Source: Escherichia phage humlepung
Sequence record: MN850564.1
Direction: 5' to 3' (one strand)
DNA: 64,000 bases
Shown here: positions 3,489 through 48,867 of the stretch, in pieces
How positions within the stretch are numbered: position 1 is the first letter of the stretch
How the letters are laid out: every line of letters starts with the position of its first letter
Program-made: the position numbers and the translations under genes
Notes under the pieces: model-generated
What the model saw: only the letters and a program-made list of their open reading frames with translations
What the model was told of the DNA's origin: nothing
Database searches by the model: none

Positions 3489-4070
3489 TCAAGAGTATTT
3501 TTTAGGCAGCAATGCACTGCGCTTGTTACTCTCTTCACTCAATAGTGCAATGAAGTCATCACTTTTACCTTTCCACGGGCTGAATGAAGGGATATGTTCA
3601 CGGATAGCCTCGATAACCGTCTTAAGTGCCGTGTTCTTCATCCACCAATCAGAATCTGCTGATGCCACCACGTAGTATCCACCGTCATCAGTTAAAATTG
3701 GCTCTGAAATACATGGTGAAATCAAAGTGGTGATGATTGAACCGTTGTTCATGTAATATGTGCGCTTCATAACCTTTTCAAGAAGCTTGTGAAGGTCACC
3801 AAACAGTGTTACTAGTTCTTTGTGGTCAATATCTTTTTCGAGGTTTGCTCGATACTTCAATAGTGCAGCATCAACCTCTCTGTCATTGAACTTGAAATAT
3901 TGAACCTCTTCAACAAGGCAAACACTGATATTGTTGACATTCATAGTCAACTTGCAAACTTTTACAGGAGAGTTGATATTTGGTTGAAAAAGTGCAATAC
4001 AACCTTCAATATTTCCAAAATGTTGGACTAATGTTACTTGTGGAGTAATATTCTGTTGCTCTTCGGACAT
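3489..4070 (-). CDS. hypothetical protein (193 aa)
   Basis: ORF in operon. Confidence 0.5.
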   Translation of the reverse strand: MSEEQQNITPQVTLVQHFGNIEGCIALFQPNINSPVKVCKLTMNVNNISVCLVEEVQYFKFNDREVDAALLKYRANLEKDIDHKELVTLFGDLHKLLEKVMKRTYYMNNGSIITTLISPCISEPILTDDGGYYVVASADSDWWMKNTALKTVIEAIREHIPSFSPWKGKSDDFIALLSEESNKRSALLPKKYS

Positions 4071-4414
4071 TACAGTTTCCTCATTAAATACTTTTTAAGT
4101 TGTGTGTTAGGTTTCTCAAAAACTTCTATAGAAGATATCTTGACAGATTCACCACGCATACCAGTATGTTTGAATATGTAGTACTCTAACATCCCTATAT
4201 ACTTTGCTGGTAAGTCATGCTTGACATATACCGTCACAGAATCTTCAAACTCAACGACCTTTGTACCATCTTTGTAGTTAAACTCTTTAGGATGGTTGTA
4301 GTTGTCTATGTCGTACATTAAAAAGAGTCTTTTACGTTGTAAGTCAAGCTTATTTGTTAAAGACTCTTTGATGTCTGAGAAGTTTTTGTACACTGTGACA
4401 TGGAGCTTACTCAT
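4070..4414 (-). CDS. hypothetical protein (114 aa)
   Basis: ORF, start/stop coupling with neighbours. Confidence 0.45.
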   Translation of the reverse strand: MSKLHVTVYKNFSDIKESLTNKLDLQRKRLFLMYDIDNYNHPKEFNYKDGTKVVEFEDSVTVYVKHDLPAKYIGMLEYYIFKHTGMRGESVKISSIEVFEKPNTQLKKYLMRKL

Positions 4415-4700
4415 CGTTAAACTCTCTGACGAAGAAATAGTTGACTTTGTTATTACCTACCATAAGGTCAAAGCAGGTATTCTCAAAAGGTTTGTTGTAG
4501 GCATCATAAGAAGTATATGTATCAGCTACTTGTTTAGTATTGAGCTTTTTACTCGATGGGTTTAAGAGGCCACCATACAGTTTCTTGATAGCCTCTTCTA
4601 CAACAGACCAGATAATTTCGTCAGTAATTTCTTCGTACAGGTCAAGTTCACGCTCTAGTGAGAAGTCACAAATAGGGAAAACAACCTGTACTTTACTCAT
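4407..4700 (-). CDS. hypothetical protein (97 aa)
   Basis: ORF in operon. Confidence 0.45.
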   Translation of the reverse strand: MSKVQVVFPICDFSLERELDLYEEITDEIIWSVVEEAIKKLYGGLLNPSSKKLNTKQVADTYTSYDAYNKPFENTCFDLMVGNNKVNYFFVREFNDE

Positions 4701-5098
4701 TAACGAATCACCTGTGAGACTTGAATTGCTTCAGTTACTGACAAATCACCCACTTTCTCTTCTTTGATAAAAGTGAAGGTGAGTTCAACAGGCTCTTGCT
4801 CTTCTTGCTCAACTGGAACACCGTTAAGCTCATCAAAGATTGATTGAGTTGTCCAGTCTTCTCCACCATCTGGATAGTGGATTGCGTAAAGAGGGAACTC
4901 TAAATCAAACCAACCAAATACAGGACAACCGTCTTCATCATCTCGTACTCGATGAAGTGTGCTTCCAGACCCTGTAAACTGAAGGAATAAATCTCCGTTG
5001 CACTTGTATATTACTGCGTCGGCAAAACCAATGTCTTCTCGACCATCATGACCAAATGTGTCCACCTTTACTTGGATATCTCTAACATCTTTATTCAT
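4700..5098 (-). CDS. hypothetical protein (132 aa)
   Basis: ORF in operon. Confidence 0.45.
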   Translation of the reverse strand: MNKDVRDIQVKVDTFGHDGREDIGFADAVIYKCNGDLFLQFTGSGSTLHRVRDDEDGCPVFGWFDLEFPLYAIHYPDGGEDWTTQSIFDELNGVPVEQEEQEPVELTFTFIKEEKVGDLSVTEAIQVSQVIR

Positions 5099-5489
5099 AA
5101 AAACCTCTCTCTGCTTGTTCGATTTTTGCTTTTAGAACTTCACACCGTTCAATGTGATATCTGGCTTCATGCTCATGTGTCGCCAAAGTTCTTTCAAGAA
5201 TGGTTTTATAGTAACCTGCAAGTTGCTCTCTTGTCAATGGGTTCTCTGAAATAATATCGAGACCACTTTCACCTAGAGTATTAAACTGTCCATGCTCATT
5301 TACATGGTAAGTTTCAAACTTGAATAAACCATTATTAGCAGACTCAATAGGCGATAGTTCAACCAACTCAACAGTAAACCTTGTATGTACCCTATCTCCA
5401 ACTGTAACAACGTTACTTCCAATGATACGTACAAGCGAGCCGTTACGAGTGTACTTAAAAGTTCCAAAGTCACTAGCCCAAAGCTTCAT
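5091..5489 (-). CDS. hypothetical protein (132 aa)
   Basis: ORF in operon. Confidence 0.45.
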   Translation of the reverse strand: MKLWASDFGTFKYTRNGSLVRIIGSNVVTVGDRVHTRFTVELVELSPIESANNGLFKFETYHVNEHGQFNTLGESGLDIISENPLTREQLAGYYKTILERTLATHEHEARYHIERCEVLKAKIEQAERGFYE

Positions 5490-7895: not shown

Positions 7896-8122
7896 TTTTC
7901 AGTTCTCCTGCGATTTATAATTTTGCTGCAATAGAGAAACGAAGTAAACTCACTGGAAGAAACTACTAAGTGTTGTTCACTAGATTGAGCCATTGCCCTG
8001 AAATACATTCCAGTCAAAGCATCATAGTGACTATTCTTTCCAATTGAGGTTATATAGCCATGACTCTTTGCAGTTTGATATAAATCTATAATATCTGCGA
8101 TTTCTAATTGGGAACTACACAT
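7889..8122 (-). CDS. hypothetical protein (77 aa)
   Basis: ORF. Confidence 0.35.
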   Translation of the reverse strand: MCSSQLEIADIIDLYQTAKSHGYITSIGKNSHYDALTGMYFRAMAQSSEQHLVVSSSEFTSFLYCSKIINRRRTEKC

Positions 8123-8364
8123 AGATAATCCTCTTGTCTTCTGTAATTTTGAAAGAACAGGTACAGACCAATTTCAGAGGATGAATAGTAGAGTAACTCT
8201 ACCCTTTTTGATTCCTTACAGTGATTGGTATTTTTACCTTTCTTCGGGTTGTTTGATTTTCTCATTAAGTCTCCTTTGTAGAACAAGGCAGACCTACAGC
8301 TTTAAGTAAGATGGTACAGTAATCCATACAACAAGTCAAGAACTATTGCAAGTTAAAAAAGTTG

Positions 8365-8394
8365 TTGACAAAGTACTTGACAAGGTGTAGGCTT
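8365..8394 (+). promoter_or_regulatory. Conserved promoter/operator element TTGACAAAGTACTTGACAAGGTGT (copy 1), -35 TTGACA + 17 nt + TAGGCT
   Basis: Near-identical element at 48838-48861; both sit at minus-to-plus strand switch points. Confidence 0.55.
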
Positions 8395-8514
8395 ATAAAT
8401 ACTTAGAAGATAACTTAAAAGGTTCCTCTAAAAAGGCTATTTAAACAGATATCTTTCTGGATATCTATCTTTTATCTTAAAAGCCTTTTAAGAGGTCTTA
8501 TAAGAGGCATACCA

Positions 8515-8886
8515 ATGAAAAACAGAACAAACAAAGGCCAGTTTAAAAAAGGCCAGTCTGGAAACCCATCTGGAAGACCAAAAGGCTCTCGTAACAAAAG
8601 CTCACTCGTAAAAGCTCAACTGACCATTGATAATTCTGCTGAGTTTGCTGCAAAGTTGTTTGAAGCGATTGTTACAAGGGATGCTGCTAAGCTTGCAGAG
8701 TTCGGGTTAAACACAGATGACGTAACCATCAAGAGTATGATTGAGGTTGGTAAAACTATCTTTACTCACTCAGCAGGTGAGATGAAAGCACTTGCAGCAG
8801 ACACTAAGAAGACTCCTGATAATGGTGGTCAACAGCAGACAGATAACAAACCAACGTTCTCTGCTGTAGCGACTCTCAAAAAATAA
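8515..8886 (+). CDS. conserved phage protein with GQSGNPSGRPKG motif (DUF5681-like by recollection)
   Basis: ATG with AAGAGG RBS; N-terminal basic GNPxGRPKG motif. Confidence 0.55.
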   Translation: MKNRTNKGQFKKGQSGNPSGRPKGSRNKSSLVKAQLTIDNSAEFAAKLFEAIVTRDAAKLAEFGLNTDDVTIKSMIEVGKTIFTHSAGEMKALAADTKKTPDNGGQQQTDNKPTFSAVATLKK

Positions 8887-8898
8887 TTTTAAAAGGTG

Positions 8899-8934
8899 TT
8901 GACAGACTCTATAAAGTTGCTCTAAAGTCTGTCA
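8899..8934 (+). promoter_or_regulatory. Sigma70-like promoter (TTGACA-18-TAAAGT) embedded in 9-bp inverted repeat TGACAGACT/AGTCTGTCA
   Basis: Consensus -35, plausible -10, dyad symmetry spanning the promoter; upstream of 8968 gene. Confidence 0.45.
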
Positions 8935-8967
8935 CATCAAACAACAAATGAGAGAAGAGAGTAAAAT

Positions 8968-10383
8968 ATGAGCGAATTATTTAAACATGCGCACCTTCAT
9001 GCAGGTCGAACTGAAAATGGTGCTGTAAACCATACTTCATCAATGTCTGCTCTTGTAGACTTTTACAAAGCTGCTGGTTCGAGCCGTAGCAATGTAGAAA
9101 TCTTACCAGACCTGTTCTACAAAGCTTTGCGTGAGGATGTTGATGTTGCAGTTCGTATTTTACTGCATATGCGAGATGTACGAGAAGGTATGGGTGAGCG
9201 TAAAGCTTTCCGAACTGTTTTACTTAAAGCAATTGAAGATAAGATTTTAGAACCTACACAGGTTCTTCGCATTATGGATAAGATTGCAGAACTTGGTCGT
9301 TTTGATGACTTCAAAATCTTCGTAGGTACTCGTTTTGAGACAGATGCCTTCAAACATTTAGAAGCAGCATTACTAGACCCTGCAACAGCAGGTTTGGCGG
9401 CTAAGTGGTTACCACGAGTCAAACCACGTCATAAGCAGTTTGTAAAACGTTTCTGCAAGTTTGCCAACTTGAGTGAGAAAGAGTACCGCACACTGTTGTC
9501 TGCACTATCTGATACAGTTGAGCAAAAAATCTCTGCTAATGAGTTTGGTAAGATTGACTACAGTAAGATTCCTTCACTTGCTGCTGCACGTTACCAAAAA
9601 CTGTTTAACCGTAAAGATGGAGAGCGTTACAAAGCTTACATCGAGTCCTTATCAAAAGGTGAGACTAAGATTAACGCTGGTGCTGTTTACCCATACGATG
9701 TGATTAAATCTGTCAAGTATGGTAATGCAGATGTTGCTAATGAGCAGTGGAAAGCACTACCAAACTGGATGGCAGAAGGTGAAAACATCTTGTGTATGTC
9801 TGATGTATCAAGTTCAATGTCTTGGGTGAATTTTGGCTCCATTACTGCTCTGGATATTGGTGTATCACTTGCCTTGTATGTAGCAGAACGCAATACAGGT
9901 TGCTTTAAGAATGAGTTAATGGTTTATTCAACAAACCCTCACTTCATCGAACTGAGTGGTGATTTACGAAACCGTCATCGTCAGGTGATGCGACACGTTG
10001 AATATGGCTCAACTAACTTACAAGCAGCTTTTGACCGCATTCTTGAAACAGGTAAAAGAAACAACTTGACTCAGAAAGATATGCCAAGTAAGCTTATCAT
10101 CTTCTCCGATATGGAGTTCAATCAGGTTGATGGAGCTAACGGTCGTACAAACTTTGAAGCAATTCAGAGTAAGTACAAAAAAGCTGGATATGAGATGCCA
10201 CAACTGGTATTCTGGTACTTAGCAAACCGTAATGGTACTTGCGAAGTATCTGTTAAGGATAACGGTGTAGCAATGGTATCAGGGTTCTCTCCAGCCACTT
10301 TAAAAGCTCTGCTTGGTGGTGAGAAGTTTGACCCAATCAGTGTAATGCTCAAAGCAGTAATGATTGACCGTTATATCTGGTAA
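8968..10383 (+). CDS. Ro60/TROVE-like protein with C-terminal von Willebrand factor A domain (DUF2828-like N-terminus by recollection)
   Basis: MIDAS-like DVSSSMS...T...IIFSDMEFN resembling Ro60 vWA (DVSASM / FTDCETN); N-terminal TENGA...S..ALVDFY motif. Confidence 0.6.
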   Translation: MSELFKHAHLHAGRTENGAVNHTSSMSALVDFYKAAGSSRSNVEILPDLFYKALREDVDVAVRILLHMRDVREGMGERKAFRTVLLKAIEDKILEPTQVLRIMDKIAELGRFDDFKIFVGTRFETDAFKHLEAALLDPATAGLAAKWLPRVKPRHKQFVKRFCKFANLSEKEYRTLLSALSDTVEQKISANEFGKIDYSKIPSLAAARYQKLFNRKDGERYKAYIESLSKGETKINAGAVYPYDVIKSVKYGNADVANEQWKALPNWMAEGENILCMSDVSSSMSWVNFGSITALDIGVSLALYVAERNTGCFKNELMVYSTNPHFIELSGDLRNRHRQVMRHVEYGSTNLQAAFDRILETGKRNNLTQKDMPSKLIIFSDMEFNQVDGANGRTNFEAIQSKYKKAGYEMPQLVFWYLANRNGTCEVSVKDNGVAMVSGFSPATLKALLGGEKFDPISVMLKAVMIDRYIW

Positions 10384-10402
10384 AAAGTTTTAAAAAGGGT
10401 AT

Positions 10403-10431
10403 TGACAATGTGTTTAATACCCTTTAATATG
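10403..10431 (+). promoter_or_regulatory. Sigma70-like promoter TTGACA-17-TAATAT inside inverted repeat AAGGGTATT/AATACCCTT
   Basis: Exact -35 consensus, 17-nt spacer, TAATAT -10; upstream of tRNA array. Confidence 0.6.
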
Positions 10432-10548
10432 TTCTACATAGAAGCGAAATGAGAGCTTTTCTAAGATACTGAAAAATATTTTAAAAAAGTTCTTGACAAC
10501 CACTAAAAAATAATGTTAAAGTGGTTACATAGAGTTTGAAAAGTTTAT

Positions 10549-10625
10549 CTCTGTTTAGCTCAGCTTGGTAGAGCGTTCCGTTTGGGGCGGTAAGGCCGGA
10601 GGTTCAAGTCCTCCAACAGAGACCA
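10549..10625 (+). tRNA. tRNA-Pro (anticodon TGG)
   Basis: 7-bp acceptor ctctgtt/aacagag, D-arm gctc/gagc, T-loop TTCAAGT, encoded CCA. Confidence 0.75.
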
Positions 10626-10632
10626 AATTAAT

Positions 10633-10710
10633 GTTCCAGTAGACAAAATGGTAAAGTCACCACTCTTTCAAAGTGGATATTTGAGGGTTCAAATCCCTTC
10701 TGGAACGCCA
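10633..10710 (+). tRNA. tRNA-Glu (anticodon TTC)
   Basis: Acceptor gttccag/ctggaac, anticodon loop cTTTCaa, T-loop TTCAAAT, CCA. Confidence 0.7.
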
Positions 10711-10715
10711 GTTTT

Positions 10716-10791
10716 GACAGAAGACCAATTACAGCAAACTTAATCTTATTCATCTGAAGGTAAATCGGACAAAGAAGAGATTTGGTCTGGT
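10716..10791 (+). repeat. Structured repeat element copy a (5' GACAGAAGACCA ... 3' TGGTCTGGTC)
   Basis: Member of four-copy family with conserved CAGAAGACC...TACAGCAA...GGTCTGG and covarying flanks. Confidence 0.5.
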
Positions 10792-10801
10792 CATTAAGAA
10801 T

Positions 10802-10878
10802 TGCGGGTATAGAGAAAGGGCGTCTCACATGTCTCATTAGCATGGTATCGGCAGGTTCGACTCCTGCACCCGCCTCCA
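10802..10878 (+). tRNA. tRNA with CAT anticodon (Met or Ile2)
   Basis: Anticodon stem catgt/gcatg, loop cTCATta, T-loop TTCGACT, CCA; 1:72 mismatch. Confidence 0.6.
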
Positions 10879-10882
10879 ATTT

Positions 10883-10946
10883 TGCAGAAGACCGTATTCA
10901 GCAACAAAATACTTTTTGCGGATAAAAGAAAAAACACGGTCTGGCA
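10883..10946 (+). repeat. Structured repeat element copy b (5' TGCAGAAGACCGT ... 3' ACGGTCTGGCA)
   Basis: Same family; flank covariation tGC/GCa. Confidence 0.5.
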
Positions 10947-10955
10947 ATGTATTAA

Positions 10956-11029
10956 GGTTAGGAAGCACATAAGGTATGTGCGGTCGCCTGTTAAGCGAAT
11001 GGCACAGGGTTCGAATCCCTGACTAACCG
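10956..11029 (+). tRNA. tRNA-Asn (anticodon GTT)
   Basis: Anticodon loop ctGTTaa, T-arm caggg-TTCGAAT-ccctg, acceptor 6/7 paired; no encoded CCA. Confidence 0.65.
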
Positions 11030-11040
11030 CAAAATTAAAT

Positions 11041-11128
11041 GTGTCGTTATCCCGTAGATGGTAGCGGTGGGGACTGTAAATCCCTTGTCATTGAGACTCG
11101 GTAGGTTCGACTCCTACACGGCACACCA
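11041..11128 (+). tRNA. tRNA-Tyr (anticodon GTA), type II with long variable arm
   Basis: 85 nt, acceptor gtgtcgt/acggcac, loop ctGTAaa, T-loop TTCGACT, CCA. Confidence 0.7.
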
Positions 11129-11133
11129 ATAAA

Positions 11134-11210
11134 GGCTATGTAGTTTAACTGGAGAAAATACTCCCCTGTCACGGGAGATGATGTGAGTTCAAGTCTCATC
11201 GTAGCCGCCA
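11134..11210 (+). tRNA. tRNA-Asp (anticodon GTC)
   Basis: Acceptor ggctatg/cgtagcc, loop ctGTCac, T-loop TTCAAGT, CCA. Confidence 0.7.
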
Positions 11211-11237
11211 ATTTTGAGAGGGCTATTTAGCCCCTCC

Positions 11238-11272
11238 CTTAAAGAGTTCTTACGAGTATTCTTTAAGGGAGC
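11238..11272 (+). repeat. Hairpin CCCTTAAAG-(agTTCTTACGAGtatt)-CTTTAAGGG
   Basis: 9-bp perfect stem; loop motif TTCTTACGAG recurs at 14277-14286. Confidence 0.5.
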
Positions 11273-11348
11273 AGAAGACCAAATACAGCAAGAATGTATG
11301 AAATTTCAAGCCAATTTAATTTTGAAAATTTAAAACTTGGTCTGGCTC
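11269..11348 (+). repeat. Structured repeat element copy c (5' GAGCAGAAGACCAA ... 3' TTGGTCTGGCTC)
   Basis: Same family; flank covariation GAGC/GCTC. Confidence 0.5.
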
Positions 11349-11354
11349 AACAAA

Positions 11355-11493
11355 TTTACAGAAGGCCGTTTACAGCAAAACTTAAACAATCTATTTCTCC
11401 GGTAAAGAAAAGGCGAAGGTTCGATTCCTTCACTCGGCAGATGTCGAGTTGGTGTAATGGTAGCACTTAAGATGATAAACAACGGTCTGGTAA
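11355..11493 (+). ncRNA. Candidate structured ncRNA (element copy d): terminal stem TTACAGAAGGCCGTT/AACGGTCTGGTAA enclosing tRNA-like T-arm and D-arm hairpins
   Basis: Internal gaagg-TTCGATT-ccttc hairpin with T-loop consensus, acceptor-like hairpin, D-arm-like gtgtAATGGTAgcac; no complete tRNA fold. Confidence 0.3.
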
Positions 11494-11639
11494 TTACCTT
11501 TGTAGATAAGTTATTAAGCTTACTTGTGAGTATGCGACCACAAAGGGTGAATGGGTAAATTCTAGATTTAAACCCAAAAAGGCACATCGCTACAGACCTT
11601 AAGCAAGTCTGGGTAGCTTATCTACAAAGATAATTTAAT

Positions 11640-11715
11640 GGAAGTGTAGCAGAATGGTGATGCGGCAGACTTTTAATCTGACAGGCGATGGGTTCGAATC
11701 CCTCCACTTCTACCA
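11640..11715 (+). tRNA. tRNA-Lys (anticodon TTT)
   Basis: Acceptor ggaagtg/cacttct, loop cTTTTaa, T-loop TTCGAAT, CCA. Confidence 0.65.
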
Positions 11716-11719
11716 ATAT

Positions 11720-11796
11720 GGTTCAGTCGCAGATAAGGTAATGCAAGGGTCTCATAAGCCCTATGAATGTGGGTTCGATTCCCATCTGAACCTCCA
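11720..11796 (+). tRNA. tRNA with CAT anticodon (Met or Ile2), second copy
   Basis: Perfect acceptor ggttcag/ctgaacc, loop cTCATaa, T-arm gtggg-TTCGATT-cccat, CCA. Confidence 0.65.
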
Positions 11797-11797
11797 A

Positions 11798-11873
11798 GCT
11801 GGTATAGTTAAGAAGGTTATAACACTCCCCTGATAAGGGAACATCGGTGGTTCGATTCCACCTACCAGTACCA
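11798..11873 (+). tRNA. tRNA-Ile (anticodon GAT)
   Basis: Loop ctGATaa, T-arm ggtgg-TTCGATT-ccacc, CCA. Confidence 0.65.
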
Positions 11874-11888
11874 ATTTCAATAAAGTTG

Positions 11889-11917
11889 TTGACATTGAGA
11901 TGTGACTACTTTATAGT
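11889..11917 (+). promoter_or_regulatory. Sigma70-like promoter TTGACA-17-TATAGT inside the tRNA region
   Basis: Exact -35, 17-nt spacer, TATAGT -10. Confidence 0.55.
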
Positions 11918-12121
11918 AACCTTAGTTTTCGTTGCGTAGCGTCTATTTTGCAAATTTAAAATAAATGCAAACGACAATGTTTTTCTGGCAGTAGCTTGAT
12001 AGGCTAAACACCAGTGAGGTCTTCCAATCCCTCATCAAAGAATTTGGCGTACTCGCCCACGGTATGATTAATAAGGTGGGCATCTTTAAGGGCTTTCTAA
12101 GAGAGTCTTTAAAGATAATTA

Positions 12122-12203
12122 CGGGGCGTATCTCAGCGGTCTTCTAAACCGCCGTTAACCGAGTAAGTGGAGTATGCGGGTTCGAGTCCTGCCGCCTCGA
12201 CCA
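12122..12203 (+). tRNA. Atypical tRNA-like gene, anticodon stem-loop gcggt-cTTCTaa-accgc (TCT, Arg-like), no recognisable D-arm, 23-nt extra segment
   Basis: 7-bp acceptor cggggcg/cgcctcg, T-arm gcggg-TTCGAGT-cctgc, CCA; only 7 nt between acceptor and anticodon stem. Confidence 0.4.
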
Positions 12204-12346
12204 ATTTAGTTAGCAGATTACTTAGACGACCTTAGCGGGTCTTCCTGTAGGGAGGTGGTCTGTATCTCATGTTTTCCAGAACATGTAAATAATCTGAGAA
12301 GGGGCTTTACAGTGTTGAGATAATACGGTAAGCTTCGAATTATAGT

Positions 12347-12429
12347 ATGGGACGATATTAAGACTCTAAGGCATGAGCAACGGCTTCCAACACCGTTTCA
12401 AAGGGGTTCAACTCCTCCGTCCCATGCCA
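12347..12429 (+). tRNA. Atypical tRNA-like gene, anticodon loop compatible with CCA (Trp) closed by a C-A pair, or 9-nt loop
   Basis: Perfect acceptor atgggac/gtcccat plus CCA, T-loop TTCAACT; D-region irregular. Confidence 0.35.
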
Positions 12430-12442
12430 AAGTCTTATTAGG

Positions 12443-12530
12443 GGTAGGTAGCGGCTAATGGTAGCCAAACTGTCTTGAAAACAGTTGCCACTGTAGAGAT
12501 ACGGTGAGGGTTCGACTCCTTTACTTACCG
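12443..12530 (+). tRNA. tRNA-Ser (anticodon TGA), type II
   Basis: 88 nt, stem actgt/acagt with loop cTTGAaa, long variable arm, T-loop TTCGACT. Confidence 0.65.
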
Positions 12531-12787
12531 CCTAATAAGATTTAAAGCCAAGCTTCATTCGGATGTTGCTTTGGTATACCGCGTGTATTGTTGTACGCAC
12601 TGATAAAGCACCTAGTAGGTGTCACGGAGAAGAGATAATATCAAGCTCTCCAAAGGTTCTAGTCACCGGATTAAACAAGACTATGCAAAGACCTTTTTAG
12701 GTCTTTTTAGAGGGCTTCTAAGGTTATTACAGCTTGTTGTGGAACCTTGTTGCTTAGGTTCTTAGAAGTTCTCTAAAAAGATTTAAT

Positions 12788-12865
12788 GGGAGATTGACGG
12801 TAATTGGTAAACCTACCATCCTTAGAAGTTGGTGTTTGAGGGTTCGAATCCCTTGTCTCCTACCA
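12788..12865 (+). tRNA. tRNA with TAG anticodon (Leu-type anticodon but short, type-I length)
   Basis: Acceptor gggagat/gtctcct with G-U pairs, loop ctTAGaa, T-arm gaggg-TTCGAAT-ccctt, CCA. Confidence 0.5.
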
Positions 12866-12872
12866 AATTAAT

Positions 12873-12948
12873 GCAGGTGTAGCAAAATGGTTATGCGGCT
12901 GACTCTTAATCAGTAAGACGATGGGTTCAATTCCCTCCACCTGTACCA
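12873..12948 (+). tRNA. tRNA-Lys (anticodon CTT)
   Basis: Stem gctga/tcagt, loop ctCTTaa, T-loop TTCAATT, CCA. Confidence 0.55.
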
Positions 12949-12954
12949 GACATT

Positions 12955-13030
12955 GGGGTCATAGTTTATATGGTTAAAATTCGAGTTTTGCAAACTTGGG
13001 AACTGAGTTCAATTCTCAGTGACTCCACCA
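12955..13030 (+). tRNA. tRNA-Ala (anticodon TGC)
   Basis: G3:U70 wobble pair in acceptor (Ala identity element), loop ttTGCaa, T-arm ctgag-TTCAATT-ctcag, CCA. Confidence 0.75.
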
Positions 13031-13036
13031 ATTAGT

Positions 13037-13111
13037 GCATCCATAGTTTAAACGGGAAAATTACAGTCTTCCAAACTGAGGTTGAGGGTTCGATTCCCTC
13101 TGGATGCTCCA
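13037..13111 (+). tRNA. tRNA-Gly (anticodon TCC)
   Basis: Perfect acceptor gcatcca/tggatgc, loop ctTCCaa, T-arm gaggg-TTCGATT-ccctc, CCA. Confidence 0.7.
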
Positions 13112-13117
13112 AACAAT

Positions 13118-13194
13118 GCTGCTTTCGTATAATTGGCTATTACACATCCCTTGTAAGGATGGAAATGCAGGTTCGAGTCCTGTGAGCAGCACCA
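13118..13194 (+). tRNA. tRNA-Thr (anticodon TGT)
   Basis: Perfect anticodon stem catcc/ggatg, loop ctTGTaa, T-loop TTCGAGT, CCA. Confidence 0.75.
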
Positions 13195-13199
13195 ATTCA

Positions 13200-13283
13200 G
13201 AGGTCAAGTGAAAGACCGCTGGTGTCAACTGAAGACCGTAACAAATTCCACGGAGTTGAGTTAGCGGCACAACTTCAGACCTC
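13200..13283 (+). repeat. Stem element AGAGGTC...GACCTCT enclosing a GAAGACCGTAAC motif
   Basis: 7-bp terminal inverted repeat; internal CTGAAGACCGTAACAAA resembles the 5' arm of elements a-d. Confidence 0.4.
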
Positions 13284-13289
13284 TTTCAC

Positions 13290-13364
13290 ACTCGCTTAGT
13301 TTATATGGTAAAACACCACCCTTACAAGATGAAGAAAAAGGTTCAAGTCCTTTAGTGAGTACCA
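13290..13364 (+). tRNA. tRNA-Val (anticodon TAC), tentative isotype
   Basis: Acceptor actcgct/agtgagt, loop cTTACaa, perfect T-arm aaagg-TTCAAGT-ccttt, CCA; anticodon stem has mismatches. Confidence 0.55.
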
Positions 13365-13365
13365 T

Positions 13366-13443
13366 GTTCCAGTATCCCAATTGGCAGAGGATGCAAGCTC
13401 AAACCTTGTATTAGTGACGGTTCGAATCCGTCTTGGAACACCA
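13366..13443 (+). tRNA. tRNA with CAA anticodon (Leu-type anticodon, type-I length)
   Basis: Acceptor gttccag/ttggaac, stem gcaag/cttgt, loop ctCAAac, T-arm gacgg-TTCGAAT-ccgtc, CCA. Confidence 0.55.
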
Positions 13444-13462
13444 ATTTAAAGAGGCTATTTAG

Positions 13463-14020
13463 ATGAGATATTTGAAGTATGCTTCATGGATTTTCCTAGC
13501 TTTACTAGAGCCATTTGCAGCAACCCTAGCAGTCATCTTAGCACCTTTCGTAGTTCCATTCTACAGTGAGAAGAAAGGACACTTACCTTTCGGGTTCAGA
13601 TGGATGGAGACATATGACAACCCAATTGATGGTGATGAAGGTCACGTTAAAAGATGGGCTAATATTAGATGGATTGGTAAACTAGGTGTCTACATGCAAA
13701 GAGTTGGATGGCTCTGGAGAAACAAAGCTTATAACTTCTCTTACCATGTATTAGGAAGAGATGTAAAAGATGTTACTAAGTGGAAAGGTAATATCAACGT
13801 AAGTTCTAACCCTGAAGATAATCAGACTGGTTATCTCCTAATGTGGAACAGGAATGCTTGGGGATTATTCGCTTTTATCCCATCAATTAAAATCTTTGGT
13901 AAACAATTTTACTGGAGAATTTATATTGGATGGAAACTAAAAAGTGTTGTCCCAGAAGAAAGAGCATTCTCAAGGGAAAGAGTTATGTTGGCATTCTTTA
14001 TTCATCCACTGAGAAAGTAA
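13463..14020 (+). CDS. hypothetical membrane protein (185 aa, Trp-rich) encoded inside the tRNA array
   Basis: ATG with AAAGAGG RBS; N-terminal hydrophobic segment. Confidence 0.55.
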   Translation: MRYLKYASWIFLALLEPFAATLAVILAPFVVPFYSEKKGHLPFGFRWMETYDNPIDGDEGHVKRWANIRWIGKLGVYMQRVGWLWRNKAYNFSYHVLGRDVKDVTKWKGNINVSSNPEDNQTGYLLMWNRNAWGLFAFIPSIKIFGKQFYWRIYIGWKLKSVVPEERAFSRERVMLAFFIHPLRK

Positions 14021-14028
14021 AGATTTAA

Positions 14029-14104
14029 AGGGGATTAGTTTACAAGGTTAAAACCTCGGTCTTTGAAATCGAAGAAGTTGGTTCAATTCCAACATCCCCC
14101 GCCA
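14029..14104 (+). tRNA. tRNA-Gln (anticodon TTG)
   Basis: Loop ctTTGaa, perfect T-arm gttgg-TTCAATT-ccaac, CCA; 1:72 mismatch. Confidence 0.6.
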
Positions 14105-14106
14105 AT

Positions 14107-14185
14107 GCTCCATTACTCCAATTGGCAGAGAGGCCAGACTTAAAATCTGTGTTATGTATCGGTTCGAATCCGATATGGAGTACCA
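14107..14185 (+). tRNA. tRNA with TAA anticodon (Leu-type anticodon, type-I length)
   Basis: Loop cTTAAaa, T-arm atcgg-TTCGAAT-ccgat, CCA; D-arm resembles the CAA tRNA. Confidence 0.5.
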
Positions 14186-14190
14186 AATTT

Positions 14191-14266
14191 AGCGGTATAG
14201 CATAACTGGCAATGCAGCAGTCTCTGAAGCTGTCTTATTAAGGTTCAAATCCTTATGCCGCTGCCA
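14191..14266 (+). tRNA. tRNA-Gln (anticodon CTG), tentative
   Basis: Acceptor agcggta/tgccgct, D-stem gcat/atgc, loop ctCTGaa, T-arm taagg-TTCAAAT-cctta, CCA. Confidence 0.55.
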
Positions 14267-14267
14267 C

Positions 14268-14294
14268 TTCTAAGGATTCTTACGAGAGTCCTTA
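14268..14294 (+). repeat. Hairpin with loop motif TTCTTACGAG (second copy)
   Basis: aaggaTTCTTACGAGagtcctt; motif shared with 11250-11259. Confidence 0.45.
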
Positions 14295-14297
14295 AAT

Positions 14298-14373
14298 GTG
14301 GCCTTATCATAAATGGTAATGACCCATGCTGTGAACATGGTCTATACGGGTTCAAATCCCGTAGGTCACCCCA
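14298..14373 (+). tRNA. tRNA-His (anticodon GTG)
   Basis: Perfect anticodon stem ccatg/catgg, loop ctGTGaa, T-arm acggg-TTCAAAT-cccgt, CCA. Confidence 0.7.
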
Positions 14374-14379
14374 ATTTAT

Positions 14380-14455
14380 AGTCCAAGTAGCTTATATGGT
14401 TAAAGCGCGTGTCTGAAAAACATGAGAAGAGGGTTCAAATCCCACTGGACTACCA
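14380..14455 (+). tRNA. tRNA-Phe (anticodon GAA)
   Basis: D-stem gctt/aagc, loop ctGAAaa, T-loop TTCAAAT, CCA; acceptor register uncertain by 1 nt. Confidence 0.6.
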
Positions 14456-14471
14456 ATTTCAAAGGTGCTTA

Positions 14472-15206
14472 ATGAAAGAGATGACAGAACAAGGTAAGGA
14501 GATTTTTAATCTCTTAAAAACCGGTAAAGGGTTTTCTAACCCACTTATTACTGGTGCAGCAGTTCTCGGTGGAACCGTAGCTGCCTCTACATCACTTGTA
14601 AGCTCTATTAGCTCTGTAACAGACCCTACAATGAAGGAGAAGCTTGTTGCTGCTGGACTTACAACAGTCCTTCTAAACAGCTTTACAACAATCCTGACAA
14701 GCACTACAGCAACCACTAAGACCCTAACAGACTACGGTCAAAAGTCTATTGATGAGTTTTCATCACGTATGCAGGTAGCAAAGGGATATTCCAATGTTAT
14801 GGGTGCAGCAGGAGAACAAGTTGGTTGTACACCATTCAGTGGTATTATGGGTGTTGCTACAGAGTATGGTCAAAAAGCTATTGACATGATTAACAGTACA
14901 CTAGATAGTGTTAATGGTGTGTTAAGTGACTTACAAGACGCTATTGATGAGGGTCTTGATACTGTTTCTGATTTAGCTAATCAGGCTGTTAGTAAGATTA
15001 ATGAAGGTATTTCAAAGATTACAGCTTATGCAGATGAAGTTGTGCAGATGATTGAAGAAGAAGCTGCCCTTATTGCAGAGTACCTTAAAACGAATATCAA
15101 TGGGTTCTTAGCAGGTATCTTACCAGACTGGTTTGATGATGCTTGTAAAACTGGTGTAATTGATGCTATTGCAACACCAGAAATGAAGAACGCATTACAG
15201 AAATAA
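14472..15206 (+). CDS. hypothetical protein (244 aa, Ala/Thr/Ser-rich)
   Basis: ATG at 14472 with AAAGG RBS; the track start at 14409 would overlap tRNA-Phe. Confidence 0.5.
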   Translation: MKEMTEQGKEIFNLLKTGKGFSNPLITGAAVLGGTVAASTSLVSSISSVTDPTMKEKLVAAGLTTVLLNSFTTILTSTTATTKTLTDYGQKSIDEFSSRMQVAKGYSNVMGAAGEQVGCTPFSGIMGVATEYGQKAIDMINSTLDSVNGVLSDLQDAIDEGLDTVSDLANQAVSKINEGISKITAYADEVVQMIEEEAALIAEYLKTNINGFLAGILPDWFDDACKTGVIDAIATPEMKNALQK

Positions 15207-15207
15207 T

Positions 15208-15300
15208 GGAAGATTAACCCTAAAAGGTAAGGGAGCAGTTTGCTAAACTGCCAGTAGCTGAGAAATCGGTGTACCAGTTCAAGTCTGGTATCTTCCTCCA
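15208..15300 (+). tRNA. tRNA-Ser (anticodon GCT), type II
   Basis: Perfect acceptor ggaagat/atcttcc, stem gcagt/actgc, loop ttGCTaa, long variable arm, CCA. Confidence 0.7.
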
Positions 15301-15304
15301 ATTT

Positions 15305-15380
15305 GAATCCGTGACAGAAATGGCTATGTGCCTGTCTGCAAAACAGGTTTATAAGGGTTCGAGTCCCTTCGGATTCTCCA
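15305..15380 (+). tRNA. tRNA-Cys (anticodon GCA)
   Basis: Perfect acceptor gaatccg/cggattc, stem cctgt/acagg, loop ctGCAaa, T-arm aaggg-TTCGAGT-ccctt, CCA. Confidence 0.75.
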
Positions 15381-15416
15381 AGTTATTTTACTCTCTCTCA
15401 ATTAAAATAATAATAA

Positions 15417-15478
15417 TGCCCTGCTATAAGTATTCTTCCTTTCGCTACCGAAGAGTATTTTTAGACAGGGCTTTTTTA
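15417..15478 (+). terminator. Long imperfect hairpin (gccctg...cagggc) followed by TTTTTT
   Basis: Inverted repeat plus T-run after the tRNA array. Confidence 0.45.
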
Positions 15479-15542
15479 CAGAGTTATACTTTATAGGAAG
15501 ACTTATACAGTATGTCTCTGACGTACATTGTGGTTTCTCCTT

Positions 15543-15566
15543 GACGGTCTCTGTGCCGTCTTTTTT
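15543..15566 (+). terminator. Rho-independent terminator gacggtctctgtgccgtc + TTTTTT
   Basis: 5-bp GC-rich stem, 8-nt loop, T-run. Confidence 0.5.
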
Positions 15567-15602
15567 AAGGAGAAACATGATTAATTATTTGGAGAAAACA
15601 TA

Positions 15603-15803
15603 ATGAGTGAGACCATTTATAAAGAACTTTATGAAGCTAATAAGAAGCTAGAGTTTATGCAGAATACTATCATGGCAATTGCAGATAGATTATCTGTAGC
15701 AACAGGTATAGATATTAAAGAAGCATCTATGGATGCACTTCTTGATGCTGTTGATGCAAAGTTCGAAGTTAAGAAAGAAGAGACTGCGACAGACTCTGAA
15801 TAA
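15603..15803 (+). CDS. hypothetical small acidic protein (66 aa) upstream of terminase
   Basis: ATG with GGAG RBS. Confidence 0.4.
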   Translation: MSETIYKELYEANKKLEFMQNTIMAIADRLSVATGIDIKEASMDALLDAVDAKFEVKKEETATDSE

Positions 15804-15824
15804 TTCTATTTGCGGAGGCGCTTA

Positions 15825-17426
15825 ATGGACTTAAATGCTGTTAAGCAGAAGCGAGTGGAAGATGTTAGGAAAGTCCTAGCTGGAGAGTTGGGGCTTTCTG
15901 ATGAAGTAAAAGAAATTATCAAATCATTCGGTAAAGACCCCTCTAAATTCCTTCCAACTCAAATTCTGACTTTATTAAGATACACACCAGACCAAGTTAG
16001 GCTTATCTTCAAATTGATGACTGATAAGAACTATGTAGCCCCTCAGCCGGGTTCTCAAGAGGTCTTTTTAAACACTAATGCTGACTTGGTTCTTTATGGT
16101 GGTGCTGCTGGTGCTGGTAAAACTGCTGCATTGTTAATGGACTCTTTAAGATTTATTGAAGACCCTAACTATAATGCTGTATATTTCCGTCGAAATACAA
16201 CACAGTTACAAGGTGGTTTATGGCCTGCTGCAAAGAAACTATTTGGTAAGTTTGGTGGGATTCCCCATGAGCAGAAAATGACTATCACATTCCCTTCTGG
16301 GGCGACTATCAAGTTTACCTATCTAGAACTTGAAAAGCACGCTGAAGGCCATCAGGGTATTGAATACTCAGCTATTTACTTTGACGAAGGTACACACTTC
16401 TCTGCTTCACAGATTTCATACCTACAAACCCGTCTACGTTCTGGTGCTGAAGGTGATTCATACATGAAGATTTCCATGAACCCAGATAGAGACCACTTTA
16501 TTTACGATTGGGTAGAACCATTCTTAGATGAAGAAGGTTACCCAGACCCTGAAAAGTGTGGTCGTATTCGTTGGTATGTAATGAATGATGGTGTGATGGT
16601 TTCTGATTGGGAGAGAGACAAGATTCTTGAAATGTTCCCTCTTGAGATTCCTCAAACATATACATTCATCTCTGGTACGATTGATGATAACCCAATTCTT
16701 GACTTCTTAGAACCAAAATACCGTGGTAAGTTGGAAAACAACACCCCTGTAAACGTTGCAAGACTTCGTTTCGGTAACTGGAAGGCTCGTGCAGAAGGTT
16801 CAAACTATTGGCAAAGACAATGGTGTGAAATTGTTGATTCACTCCCAGAAGATGTATTTGATGTTAGAGCATGGGACTTAGCAGCAACTTTACCATCGGA
16901 GATTAACCCTAATCCAGACTGGACAGCAGGTGTTAAGATGGGTAAATCTAAAAAAGACGGTTGCTATTATATCATTGATGTAGTAAGATTTAGAGATAGA
17001 CCCTCTGGAGTCGAAACACAAATTAATTTGACTGCTGAAAGTGACGGTAAGCGAACTGGTATTTTTATCCCTCAAGACCCAGGCGCTGCTGGTAAATCCT
17101 ACGCAACATCCCTCATCAGGAAACTTGCCGAGAAAGGTTATCGAGCAAGAGCCAAACCAACAAATAAAGATAAAGTTACCCGCTTTGCGGGATTTTCTGC
17201 TGCTTCTGAAGCTGGACTTGTAAAAGTCTTGAGAGGTAGTTGGAATGAAGCTTACTTTCAAGAGCTTGAAGGCTTTTGTGGTGATGGCAAAACTAAAGAT
17301 GACCAAGTGGATGCTACCAGTGATGCTTTCAACAGTCTTAACGAAGTTAAATTATTCAAGCCACCATCAATGGGTGCTCACACAGATTTAGTGAGAGGAA
17401 ACCCATATGAGGGGCTTAGACGTTGA
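15825..17426 (+). CDS. terL: terminase large subunit
   Basis: Walker A LYGGAAGAGKT; start moved to ATG 15825 with GGAGG RBS (track start 15810 is TTG). Confidence 0.85.
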   Translation: MDLNAVKQKRVEDVRKVLAGELGLSDEVKEIIKSFGKDPSKFLPTQILTLLRYTPDQVRLIFKLMTDKNYVAPQPGSQEVFLNTNADLVLYGGAAGAGKTAALLMDSLRFIEDPNYNAVYFRRNTTQLQGGLWPAAKKLFGKFGGIPHEQKMTITFPSGATIKFTYLELEKHAEGHQGIEYSAIYFDEGTHFSASQISYLQTRLRSGAEGDSYMKISMNPDRDHFIYDWVEPFLDEEGYPDPEKCGRIRWYVMNDGVMVSDWERDKILEMFPLEIPQTYTFISGTIDDNPILDFLEPKYRGKLENNTPVNVARLRFGNWKARAEGSNYWQRQWCEIVDSLPEDVFDVRAWDLAATLPSEINPNPDWTAGVKMGKSKKDGCYYIIDVVRFRDRPSGVETQINLTAESDGKRTGIFIPQDPGAAGKSYATSLIRKLAEKGYRARAKPTNKDKVTRFAGFSAASEAGLVKVLRGSWNEAYFQELEGFCGDGKTKDDQVDATSDAFNSLNEVKLFKPPSMGAHTDLVRGNPYEGLRR

Positions 17427-41892: not shown

Positions 41893-42222
41893 TTAATCTG
41901 CCAACCTTAAATTGAAATTAACACCAAATTTTTCACACACTTCCAACATATACTCAAGAGAGACATTGCCAGTGAGATGGATTATGTTGGATACGCGAGC
42001 CTGAGAGATACCACAAATTTTAGCAACTTGCTCTTGAGAAAGACCTCTGGATTTAATCTCTCTCTTAAAACGATGTGCAACGAAGTCTCTCATTTCGTCT
42101 ACACCCATTGGACAAATATAACTCTCCATTTCAGCCTCTCTATCAGCCTCCCAATCATCTTGTGGAGCATAAGGGTCAAAAGCTTCATTCATCTTTCTTC
42201 TTCCGTTTGCGTGAAGTGTCAA
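41893..42222 (-). CDS. helix-turn-helix DNA-binding protein (XRE-like)
   Basis: LSQEQVAKICGISQARVSNIIH resembles an HTH motif. Confidence 0.5.
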   Translation of the reverse strand: MTLHANGRRKMNEAFDPYAPQDDWEADREAEMESYICPMGVDEMRDFVAHRFKREIKSRGLSQEQVAKICGISQARVSNIIHLTGNVSLEYMLEVCEKFGVNFNLRLAD

Positions 42223-42398: not shown

Positions 42399-42782
42399 TC
42401 AAATACCTGTGCAGCTTCTGTTTTCTAAGAAATACTCAACACCATACATAGCTTTTTGCATCAAATCTTCTTTAAACTGGATACGGTGGTTGAGCATAGC
42501 TTGTACATCAATATCGTCATGGTGTTTCTCTTTAATATTTGCAGATTGCAGGAAATACTCTGCAAGAACACGATACTGGTAGTCAGTTACCTTATCAGTC
42601 ATCTCTGTCAAAGACTCTTCAGAGATTGGTTTAAGTAGCTCACCATTAGCCAGAGCAACACCTTTTACAATCTGGCAAGTATCTTCTGGAACACCTGACA
42701 AGTCCACATTTGGAAGTTCTGTTGCATTGACTGGTAAATTCATTGTCATAACCATTGCAGCAGCTAATAAAATCTTTTTCAT
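42399..42782 (-). CDS. secreted/periplasmic protein with N-terminal signal peptide (127 aa)
   Basis: MKKILLAAAMVMTMNLPVNA signal-like N-terminus; GAGGT RBS. Confidence 0.5.
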   Translation of the reverse strand: MKKILLAAAMVMTMNLPVNATELPNVDLSGVPEDTCQIVKGVALANGELLKPISEESLTEMTDKVTDYQYRVLAEYFLQSANIKEKHHDDIDVQAMLNHRIQFKEDLMQKAMYGVEYFLENRSCTGI

Positions 42783-42828
42783 AATGACCTCAAAGTTATA
42801 TTAAATTTTGTATTACGTTGAGTATAAA

Positions 42829-42875
42829 AATAAGCTATAACACCTGACTTGTCAACAGATTTTATAGCTTATTTG
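42829..42875 (-). promoter_or_regulatory. 13-bp inverted repeat (AAAATAAGCTATA / TATAGCTTATTT) with TTGACA in the loop on the minus strand; promoter or terminator
   Basis: Minus strand reads TTGACA-17-TATTTT; hairpin followed by T-rich tract. Confidence 0.4.
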
Positions 42876-42894
42876 GCAGATTTTTTATAAGGCT

Positions 42895-43130
42895 ACTGCC
42901 ATCCTTCCATACTATACCCTACCAAACCGTACCTAACCTCACCCTACCGAACCGAACCGTACCTCATTAAAAGACCCTCTTTAAAGACCTTTTAAAAAGG
43001 TAAGTCTCATTTTAATGTAGCTGAGACTAACTACCCATACCAAACAGCACCGCACTATGCCTTACCCCACCTCACCGAGCCTCGCCCCACATCACTTAAA
43101 AACCCTTTTCAAAGACTCTTAAGTGATGTT
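42895..43130. repeat. G-depleted (plus strand) low-complexity tract with degenerate ACCCTACCRAACCGTACCT repeats and an 11-bp inverted repeat (43089-43099 / 43119-43129)
   Basis: Strong strand compositional skew; tandem ~25-nt units at 42916-42966; ACATCACTTAA / TTAAGTGATGT palindrome arms. Confidence 0.55.
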
Positions 43131-43343
43131 GGTGAGTACCCGTTGGTTTATGCTGCTCAGTATACTCACCAAATTTTCTATGTCAACAACTTTTTATAAA
43201 AAAGTTCTGATAGCTATATGTGTCACGAAACAAAAGATTGTAAACAAGACACCCATTGCAAAAGATGTGTCCAAAAGCTTACTTGCAACGTATGACAATA
43301 CAAAGACAACCAGTATAAACAGAATGACTGTACTGAACATAGT

Positions 43344-48837: not shown

Positions 48838-48867
48838 TTGACAATGTACTTGACAAGGTGTTAATCT
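48838..48867 (+). promoter_or_regulatory. Conserved promoter/operator element TTGACAATGTACTTGACAAGGTGT (copy 2)
   Basis: 23/24 identical to 8365-8388; lies in divergent intergenic region. Confidence 0.55.

Follow-up and report, generated by a model that had tools for sequence, protein, structure and literature searches.

Sigma-70-type promoter motifs superimposed on inverted repeats in a Felix O1-like phage: possible counterparts of the promoter-early stem-loop cassettes of T4-like phages

Three near-consensus promoter motifs in the genome of Escherichia phage humlepung (record MN850564.1) are superimposed on inverted repeats that are longer than chance would readily produce and that are conserved in related phages. 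The elements, referred to here as S1, S2 and S3, were found in a stretch of 64,000 nucleotides (the window), and the TTGACA boxes that the initial annotation had placed inside 9-13-bp inverted repeats are present as claimed. Perfect repeats of 9, 10 and 13 bp enclose or flank the boxes at 8899, 10402 and 42855 (minus strand), respectively. S1 precedes a gene for a Ro-like RNA-binding protein, S2 precedes a cluster of tRNA genes, and S3 precedes a minus-strand operon. The judgement is about evenly balanced as to whether they are composite cassettes, each a promoter plus a stem-loop, of the kind called PeSL (promoter-early stem-loop) and known from the T4-like phages RB49/phi1, T4/PST and KVP40/nt-1.

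The window belongs to a Felixounavirus, that is, a Felix O1-like myophage of E. coli. More than 180 Felix O1-like phage genomes match its region 8000-12000 at 95-99% identity, Escherichia phage vB_Eco_Tribble best of all (99%), and these relatives are classified in the Ounavirinae, genus Felixounavirus.

Anatomy of the three elements

All three elements are intergenic, located between the stop codon of the upstream gene and the Shine-Dalgarno sequence and start codon of the downstream one (coordinates are collected in Table 1). A promoter scan scores each of them at 10 of 12 against the consensus; the spacers measure 17-18 nt, and the three are probably active as near-consensus sigma-70 promoters. 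An A/T-rich tract lies upstream of S1, of S2 and of P10493, a second tandem promoter before the tRNA cluster (AATTTTAAAAGG, GTTTTAAAAAGG and ATTTTAAAAAAG, respectively), and another lies upstream of S3 (TTATAAAAAATCTGCCAAATAAGCTATAAAA). S1, S2 and P10493 also agree in a ATTTTAAAA(A)G tract on the upstream side and in ACAT at the start region.

S1 begins 9 nt past the stop codon of a DUF5681 gene and occupies the 81-bp gap at 8887-8967. Its perfect 9-bp arms, TGACAGACT (8900-8908) and AGTCTGTCA (8926-8934), enclose a 17-nt loop, and the stem can be extended to 15 pairs (8895-8910 with 8924-8938) at the cost of one bulge and one C·A mismatch. The stem joins the -35 region to the distal -10 and start-site region, with the spacer as the loop. 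S2, located 11 nt past the stop codon of the Ro-like gene, has perfect 10-bp arms, AAAGGGTATT (10394-10403) and AATACCCTTT (10416-10425), and a 12-nt loop; RNAfold lengthens this stem to 12 pairs with an 8-nt loop, so that the -35 box lies partly at the top of the 5' arm and partly in the loop, and the tail reads UUUAAUAUGUU. S3, which sits 45-92 nt upstream of the ATG at 42782, has the longest arms, a perfect 13 bp (42828-42840 and 42862-42874). Its 21-nt loop includes a further 5-bp inner stem, giving a fold of 13 + 5 pairs in which the -35 box lies inside a 9-nt apical loop, and the 3' arm continues into UUUUUAUAC.

Comparison with chance

S1-S3 had been picked for having dyads, a selective choice with which the following counts are to be read: among 300 dinucleotide shuffles per site of 65-nt windows, a perfect repeat of equal or greater length arose in 0/300 for S1, 2/300 for S2 and 0/300 for S3. 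The folding z-scores of the same windows against dinucleotide shuffles are -3.9, -3.5 and -4.5 for S1, S2 and S3, and a fold tool gave RNA folds of -15.6, -14.1 and -17.8 kcal/mol with z = -3.35, -2.84 and -3.75. Counting perfect hairpins with stems of 9 bp or more and loops of 3-25 nt gives only 12 in the whole 64-kb window, compared with 6.5 +/- 2.8 in block shuffles, and four of the 12 overlap consensus promoters, namely S1, S2, S3 and the minus-strand promoter P-43186. A significant repeat is lacking at most of the window's roughly 13 consensus promoter-like sites. The dyads at S1-S3 are real and non-random.

Conservation among related phages

The arms were compared across 40 relatives drawn from IMG/VR and metagenome contigs, to which a metagenome pattern scan contributed 13 loci and with them a few further variants. 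Arms are conserved across this set, loops and 5' leaders are variable, and the three elements are the best-conserved non-coding DNA in their neighbourhoods. One-sided changes in the arms of S1 and S2 are mostly compatible with G·U pairing on the sense strand. The S1 pair 8896-8937, for example, is found as G·U, A-U and G-C, the change A8906G yields a G·U pair, and Moogle-like sequences at S1 carry two wobble pairs and have gained a C-G pair. A hand count of arm substitutions gave seven G·U-compatible transitions versus two pair-breaking transversions, a distribution that no more than suggests selection on pairing.

S3 is invariant in 23 close relatives and in Citrobacter phage Moogle (Mooglevirus), and covariation at S3 is uninformative for that reason. 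The identity with Moogle covers the element and its surroundings (~95 nt); the Moogle protein encoded downstream is only 33% identical, with no match at the DNA level. S2 is likewise invariant or nearly so in Mooglevirus, where the flanking DNA has diverged.

Transcriptional context and a proposed explanation

Because transcripts begun at these promoters would lack the 5' arm, the hairpins can form only in RNA that arrives from upstream. Each of the three elements lies directly downstream of a co-directional transcription unit, as do all the dyad-bearing promoters, and the promoter pairs of divergent regions (8365/8377 and 48838/48850) have no dyad. Dyads are thus found at five of nine promoters with co-directional upstream transcription versus none of two divergent-region loci, numbers too small for significance; the pattern is consistent with a role in RNA. 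Folding is also stronger on the sense than on the antisense strand for S2 (-13.5 vs -10.7) and S3 (-17.8 vs -14.1), a gain of 3-4 kcal/mol, as it is for a canonical terminator at 15418-15471 (-25.4 vs -18.8). The hairpins of S2 and S3 are followed by U-rich tails that correspond to the promoter's own -10 or AT-rich DNA, and a simple terminator scan calls S2 (12 pairs, 3 G-C, 8-nt loop). A permissive Rfam search over 8000-16000 returned tRNAs and weak chance matches, with nothing at the promoters.

If S1-S3 are PeSL-like cassettes, the same DNA would be used in two ways. As double-stranded DNA it would serve as a near-consensus promoter for the host sigma-70 polymerase, made up of an UP-like A/T tract (..TTTTAAAAAG..), TTGACA and a -10 box 17-18 bp downstream. 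It would also be read through by polymerases coming from the co-directional upstream unit, and the inverted repeat would fold in the read-through RNA in vivo. At S2 and S3, the hairpin together with the U-rich RNA copy of the -10 or AT-rich DNA may then terminate transcription as a leaky intrinsic terminator or attenuator, and at S1, which has no U tract, it may stabilise the upstream mRNA as a protective 3'-end hairpin or serve in its processing. The elements would lie at places where gene cassettes are gained, lost and replaced because the promoter part is conserved between sites and between genera. All of this looks like a further case of the PeSL type already described in T4-like phages, not like a new category of mechanism.

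Cassette boundaries and mosaic junctions

Differences in gene content between genera are seen at these very positions. Erwinia phage phiEa104 (genus Kolesnikvirus) lacks the Ro-like gene that S1 and S2 bracket, as judged from gene order only; in that phage a TTGACAGG promoter follows the DUF5681 homologue and tRNAs come directly after it. Shigella phage ESh22 has nothing of what lies between P-43186 and S3 and carries one P-43186-like promoter before the gene. Homology with Moogle at S3 stops at 42797, about 15 nt before the start codon, and at this locus Moogle carries two additional genes and has the non-coding module found upstream of S3 a second time. BLAST breakpoints against Moogle fall at 42797, 53335 and 53702, beside S3 and the promoters P53322 and P53661, a pattern consistent with promoter modules as preferred junctions.

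A further proposal, which we regard as doubtful, is that the conserved promoter/stem-loop modules are crossover points for an integron-like exchange of accessory cassettes between Ounavirinae genera, with the stem-loop itself, as single-stranded DNA or RNA, taking part in recombination or insulation. The cassettes exchanged in this way may include the Ro/TROVE-like gene beside the tRNA cluster and the non-coding module upstream of S3.

The Ro-like gene (8968-10383) has homologues at 29-47% identity in a wide variety of phages, among them phages of Mycobacterium, Listeria, Vibrio, Campylobacter and Bacillus, and is missing from the sister genus Kolesnikvirus. Such a distribution would suit an accessory cassette that moves horizontally.

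Upstream of S3, the non-coding module is part of a 560-bp gap (42783-43343, minus strand, with 42905-42950 of particular note) between a ligase-like gene and S3, in the path of the predicted promoter P-43186. The gap contains conserved hairpins (43089-43129) and nine tandem GGTNN pentamers, which are hypervariable even though the phages compared are 97-99% identical elsewhere. Moogle has the module in duplicate and ESh22 lacks it; the module could specify a non-coding RNA or be an origin-like element.

Weighing the alternatives

Several observations weigh against reading S1-S3 as PeSL-like cassettes. Breakpoints near promoters are to be expected anyway, because intergenic DNA diverges fastest. 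At S1, P-43186 and P10493 the sense strand has no folding advantage over the antisense strand. The stems are AT-rich; S1 has its long loop (17 nt) and no U tract, and S2 has only three U before AAUAU. The terminator scan calls neither S3 (18 pairs, 9-nt apical loop, then UUUUUAUAC) nor S1, and the annotation of Tribble marks 16 terminators, none of them at S1 or S2. Each site has arms of its own, whereas the PeSLs of RB49 are highly repetitive. Of the two pair-breaking transversions, one is in S1 of Moogle-like sequences and the other in P10493 of one contig. There are zero double compensatory changes in 24 distinct S1 variants, the S1 covariation score is no higher than that of the shuffle control (72 of 500 shuffles attain the same score), and conservation of the arms could come in part from promoter constraints.

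A literature search turned up no transcription-start or transcriptome study of Felixounavirus, which likewise belongs on this side of the balance. The genome paper on Felix O1 gives five promoters, none of which is S1, S2 or S3 by position or motif, and calls the passage of transcription past terminators, and its timing, unknown (PMC3185647). That paper and the genome paper on UAB_Phi87 give promoters with no mention of dyads.

The dyads may then have no function of their own, and be by-products of template-switch (quasi-palindrome) mutation or of promoter duplication that have been kept through overlapping promoter bases and close kinship. We consider this unlikely. It would fit the lack of significant covariation and of double compensatory change, the lack of strand preference at S1, and the many promoter-like sites in the window that have no significant dyad. 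It would also fit the phiEa104 promoter homologous to S1, where the dyad is almost gone (7 pairs including G·U, 23-nt loop, z = +1.0). Against it, four of the 12 long perfect hairpins in 64 kb are on promoters, which make up about 1% of the sequence. Outside the hexamers, moreover, the arms vary far less than the loops in relatives whose Ro-like protein is 85-99% identical, S2 and S3 persist in Mooglevirus within diverged flanking DNA, and further promoters have this architecture with arm sequences unrelated to these.

Alternatively, the dyads may act as DNA, as protein sites that tune or shut off early transcription; S3, for example, may be an auto-regulatory operator for an HTH_3 (Cro/CI-type) protein. 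Counted from the first gene of the S3-driven operon, the gene for this protein (41893-42192) lies two genes further downstream. Among S1-S3 only S3 has an HTH_3 gene in its operon, and the protein's homologue in Moogle is annotated as a transcriptional regulator. A dyad over the -35 box and spacer is in the classic position of an operator, the complete conservation of S3 in two genera, loop included, suits protein recognition better than pure base pairing, and S1 and P-43186 have no RNA strand preference. We nevertheless judge this quite improbable. The repressor operator suggested in the initial annotation found little support: a common operator is unlikely because each site has arms of a different sequence, set in a different register to the promoter, and no half-site turns up in a second dyad. 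A half-site search that allowed up to one mismatch, run over the window and the other 27 kb of the relative's genome (about 88 kb in all), gave no second dyad. Operators for Cro/CI-type dimers are typically 14-20 bp long, whereas the arms here are 22-34 bp apart from centre to centre (34 bp at S3). Finally, the arms change by G·U-compatible transitions, and in a protein site these would affect one arm only.

The initial annotation had also suggested a switch between terminator and promoter. Its terminator-promoter half fits the co-directional upstream units and the sense-strand folds and U-rich tails at S2 and S3, but the idea that a cruciform or DNA hairpin, formed under supercoiling, hides the -35 box as an on/off switch is close to negligible, despite the perfect arms of 9-13 bp and a weak antisense promoter-like site (GTGACA-18-TAGAGT) created by the symmetry of S1. 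With loops of 12-21 nt cruciform extrusion is unlikely; long central spacers combined with short, AT-rich arms make it unfavourable both energetically and kinetically, and the stem extensions use G·U pairs, which in DNA would be weak G·T or A·C mismatches. The antisense site is lost in Moogle-like relatives (by eye), and hairpin promoters of the N4 type need a virion RNA polymerase, whereas Felix O1 is reported to have no RNA polymerase of its own (PMC3185647).

Other promoters with stem-loops

Promoters elsewhere in the window were compared with S1-S3 (Table 1). P10493 has a weak 7-bp dyad, AACCACT (10498-10504) with AGTGGTT (10520-10526), that is not significant alone. P-43186 has a perfect 10-bp dyad, TTGGTGAGTA (43172-43163) with TACTCACCAA (43138-43129), which covers the spacer, the -10 box and the early transcribed region. 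At P11889 a 7-bp dyad, ATAAAGT (11880-11886) with ACTTTAT (11908-11914), flanks the -35 box and spacer and is borderline (p about 0.07). The canonical terminator at 15418-15471 offers a reference case, with the -35 box TAGACA (15462-15467) of a TAGACA-17-TATACT promoter held in its 3' arm. The register of the arms varies from promoter to promoter: they stand on either side of the spacer at S1 and P10493 and of the -35 box at S2, S3 and P11889, and they lie over the -10 box at P-43186.

Table 1. Positions of the promoter elements and of the genes around them in the window
Feature	Position	Strand	Description
S1, putative sigma-70-type promoter of the Ro-like gene	8895..8938	+	TTGACA 8899-8904, 18-nt spacer, TAAAGT 8923-8928
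S2, putative promoter before the tRNA cluster	10394..10430	+	TTGACA 10402-10407, 17-nt spacer, TAATAT 10425-10430
S3, putative promoter of the operon 42782 to about 41532	42827..42874	-	TTGACA 42855-42850, 17-nt spacer, TATTTT 42832-42827
P10493, second tandem promoter before the tRNA cluster	10493..10526	+	TTGACA-18-TAAAGT, S1-type
P11889	11880..11917	+	TTGACA-17-TATAGT, 11/12 consensus matches
P-43186	43129..43186	-	TTGACA-16-TATACT, 11/12 consensus matches
Reference terminator-promoter	15418..15490	+	Canonical 20-bp terminator hairpin 15418-15471, then U6, after tRNA-Cys
DUF5681 gene	8515-8886	+	Stop codon 8884-8886
DUF2828/DUF7788 gene, 471 aa	8968-10383	+	'Ro-like RNA-binding protein' (Ro/TROVE-like) in relatives' annotation; stop codon 10381-10383
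tRNA cluster, 24 tRNA genes	10549-15380		Follows the Ro-like gene
S3-driven operon	42782 to about 41532	-	Includes the HTH_3 gene

Two further cases come from Tribble. Its rIIA-rIIB promoter has an 8-bp stem of the GGGGCT/AGCCCC type (AAGGGGCT-ttga-AGCCCCTT) wholly within the spacer, and at L070:5723 a 15-pair stem with UUUUAU after it surrounds another promoter. In total there are about 8-10 promoter/stem-loop composites in about 88 kb (the window plus the rest of the genome as read from Tribble), and the sequence common to the copies is only ~20-25 nt, which is the UP tract plus the -35 box.

A more repetitive arrangement is found outside the window, in Tribble OX016465 (L071, 1-3417), where at least five copies of a ~70-nt cassette, tcaacGGGGAGGgaatgaCCTTCCCCactaaataaaacccttaaactaggagattcaaaa-ATG, stand before small ORFan genes. 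The cassette contains a GGGGAGG...CCTTCCCC stem, and at least three copies sit behind a TTGNNN-17-TAAATT promoter. This highly repetitive module of promoter, stem-loop and Shine-Dalgarno sequence is nearer to classical PeSLs than S1-S3 are.

The divergent intergenic regions 8365-8390 and 48838-48863 share a 25-nt motif with two -35 boxes, TTGACAA(A/T)GTACTTGACAAGGTGT. Its core, CTTGACAAGGTG, recurs at the Tribble promoter L070:5723, and the shorter TTGACAAGGTG is also found at 45596 of the window (minus strand). The motif may mark a distinct promoter class or a protein-binding site.

Other features of the window

Past the reference terminator and its promoter, the leader in the region 15418-15602 contains GTTTCTCCTT (15533-15542), which can pair with AAGGAGAAAC (15567-15576). 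The latter includes a Shine-Dalgarno-like AAGGAG beside the ATG at 15577, and the pairing brackets a second terminator hairpin (15543-15560, then T6). The whole looks like an attenuator or a translational-control leader.

About 200 nt of putatively promoter-driven non-coding sequence (11925-12120) with weak tmRNA-like matches precede a tRNA-like sequence at 12122-12200. The latter scores 31.7 bits against the Rfam tRNA model, was missed by ARAGORN and is given as tRNA-Arg in the annotation of typing phage 1. The region 11925-12200 lies near the Ro/TROVE-like gene, and a Y-RNA-like partner is worth considering.

At the start of the window, positions 1-1250 are non-coding and dense in TGTTA[AG], with 28 occurrences on the plus strand (25.6 per kb versus 1.7 per kb elsewhere). 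Their spacing is often 10-11 bp (110/121/132/143 and 434/444/455; also 1009/1022/1034), as in a helically phased, iteron-like array, and the region extends upstream in Tribble (3667-5311).

Significance

Should the PeSL-like interpretation be right, compact promoter/terminator cassettes of this type would not be limited to T4-like phages but would belong to the design of large virulent phages more generally. Every accessory gene would come with a strong promoter of its own, insulated from its neighbours, and the conserved promoter part would offer the homology for swaps between genera, which would account for the presence or absence of the Ro-like gene and of the non-coding module upstream of S3 among genera. 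There are practical sides as well: a map of promoters and attenuators would become available for Felixounaviruses, which are widely used in the biocontrol of Salmonella and E. coli, and phage engineering would gain short, strong, self-insulating promoter parts.

Comparison with known systems

Cro/CI-type operators resemble the present elements in having a dyad over the -35 box and spacer, and an HTH_3 gene is at hand in the S3-driven operon. They differ in that no half-site is common to S1-S3, the spacing of the arms is wide and variable, and there are no repeated operators. The likeness to Rho-independent terminators that overlap the next promoter, as at 15418-15490, extends to S2 and S3, where a hairpin and U-rich tail with a sense-strand bias follow a gene. 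Unlike canonical terminators, though, S1-S3 have loops that are long, stems poor in G-C pairs and U tracts that are short or interrupted; the ordinary terminators of this phage have G+C-rich stems and tetraloops and are followed by T5-8.

The PeSLs of T4-like phages, described by Arbiol et al. in 2010, combine a strong sigma-70 promoter that has AT-rich DNA upstream with a stem-loop lying between, over or beside the promoter boxes, and reporter assays showed both promoter and terminator activity (PMC2839356). They are associated with hyperplastic regions and concentrated at the boundaries of insertions, deletions and replacements (PMC2839356; PMC4122927), and for nt-1/KVP40 Comeau et al. in 2014 gave the stem consensus A3-4G3-loop-C3T3-4 (PMC4122927). 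The elements described here depart from this pattern in several respects. They belong to an Ounavirinae myophage of the genus Felixounavirus, whereas PeSLs have so far been described only in T4-like myoviruses, and PeSLs occur in many copies with a conserved motif of about 100 bp, compared with far fewer copies and a common sequence of ~20-25 nt here. S1 and S3 have AT-rich stems, and their loops of 17-21 nt take in either the entire spacer or the -35 box; S1 has no U tract. Mini-circles that arise by recombination between copies are a PeSL trait, and S1-S3 are known from sequence alone. What they share with PeSLs is a near-consensus sigma-70 promoter with an AT-rich upstream tract, a stem-loop superimposed on it in variable register relative to the two boxes, and an intergenic position just past the stop codon of the upstream gene. 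The examples at hand would also fit a place at the boundaries of gene-cassette indels or replacements. In S2 the likeness reaches the sequence itself, with a stem, AAAGGG...CCCTTT, that equals the nt-1/KVP40 PeSL consensus.

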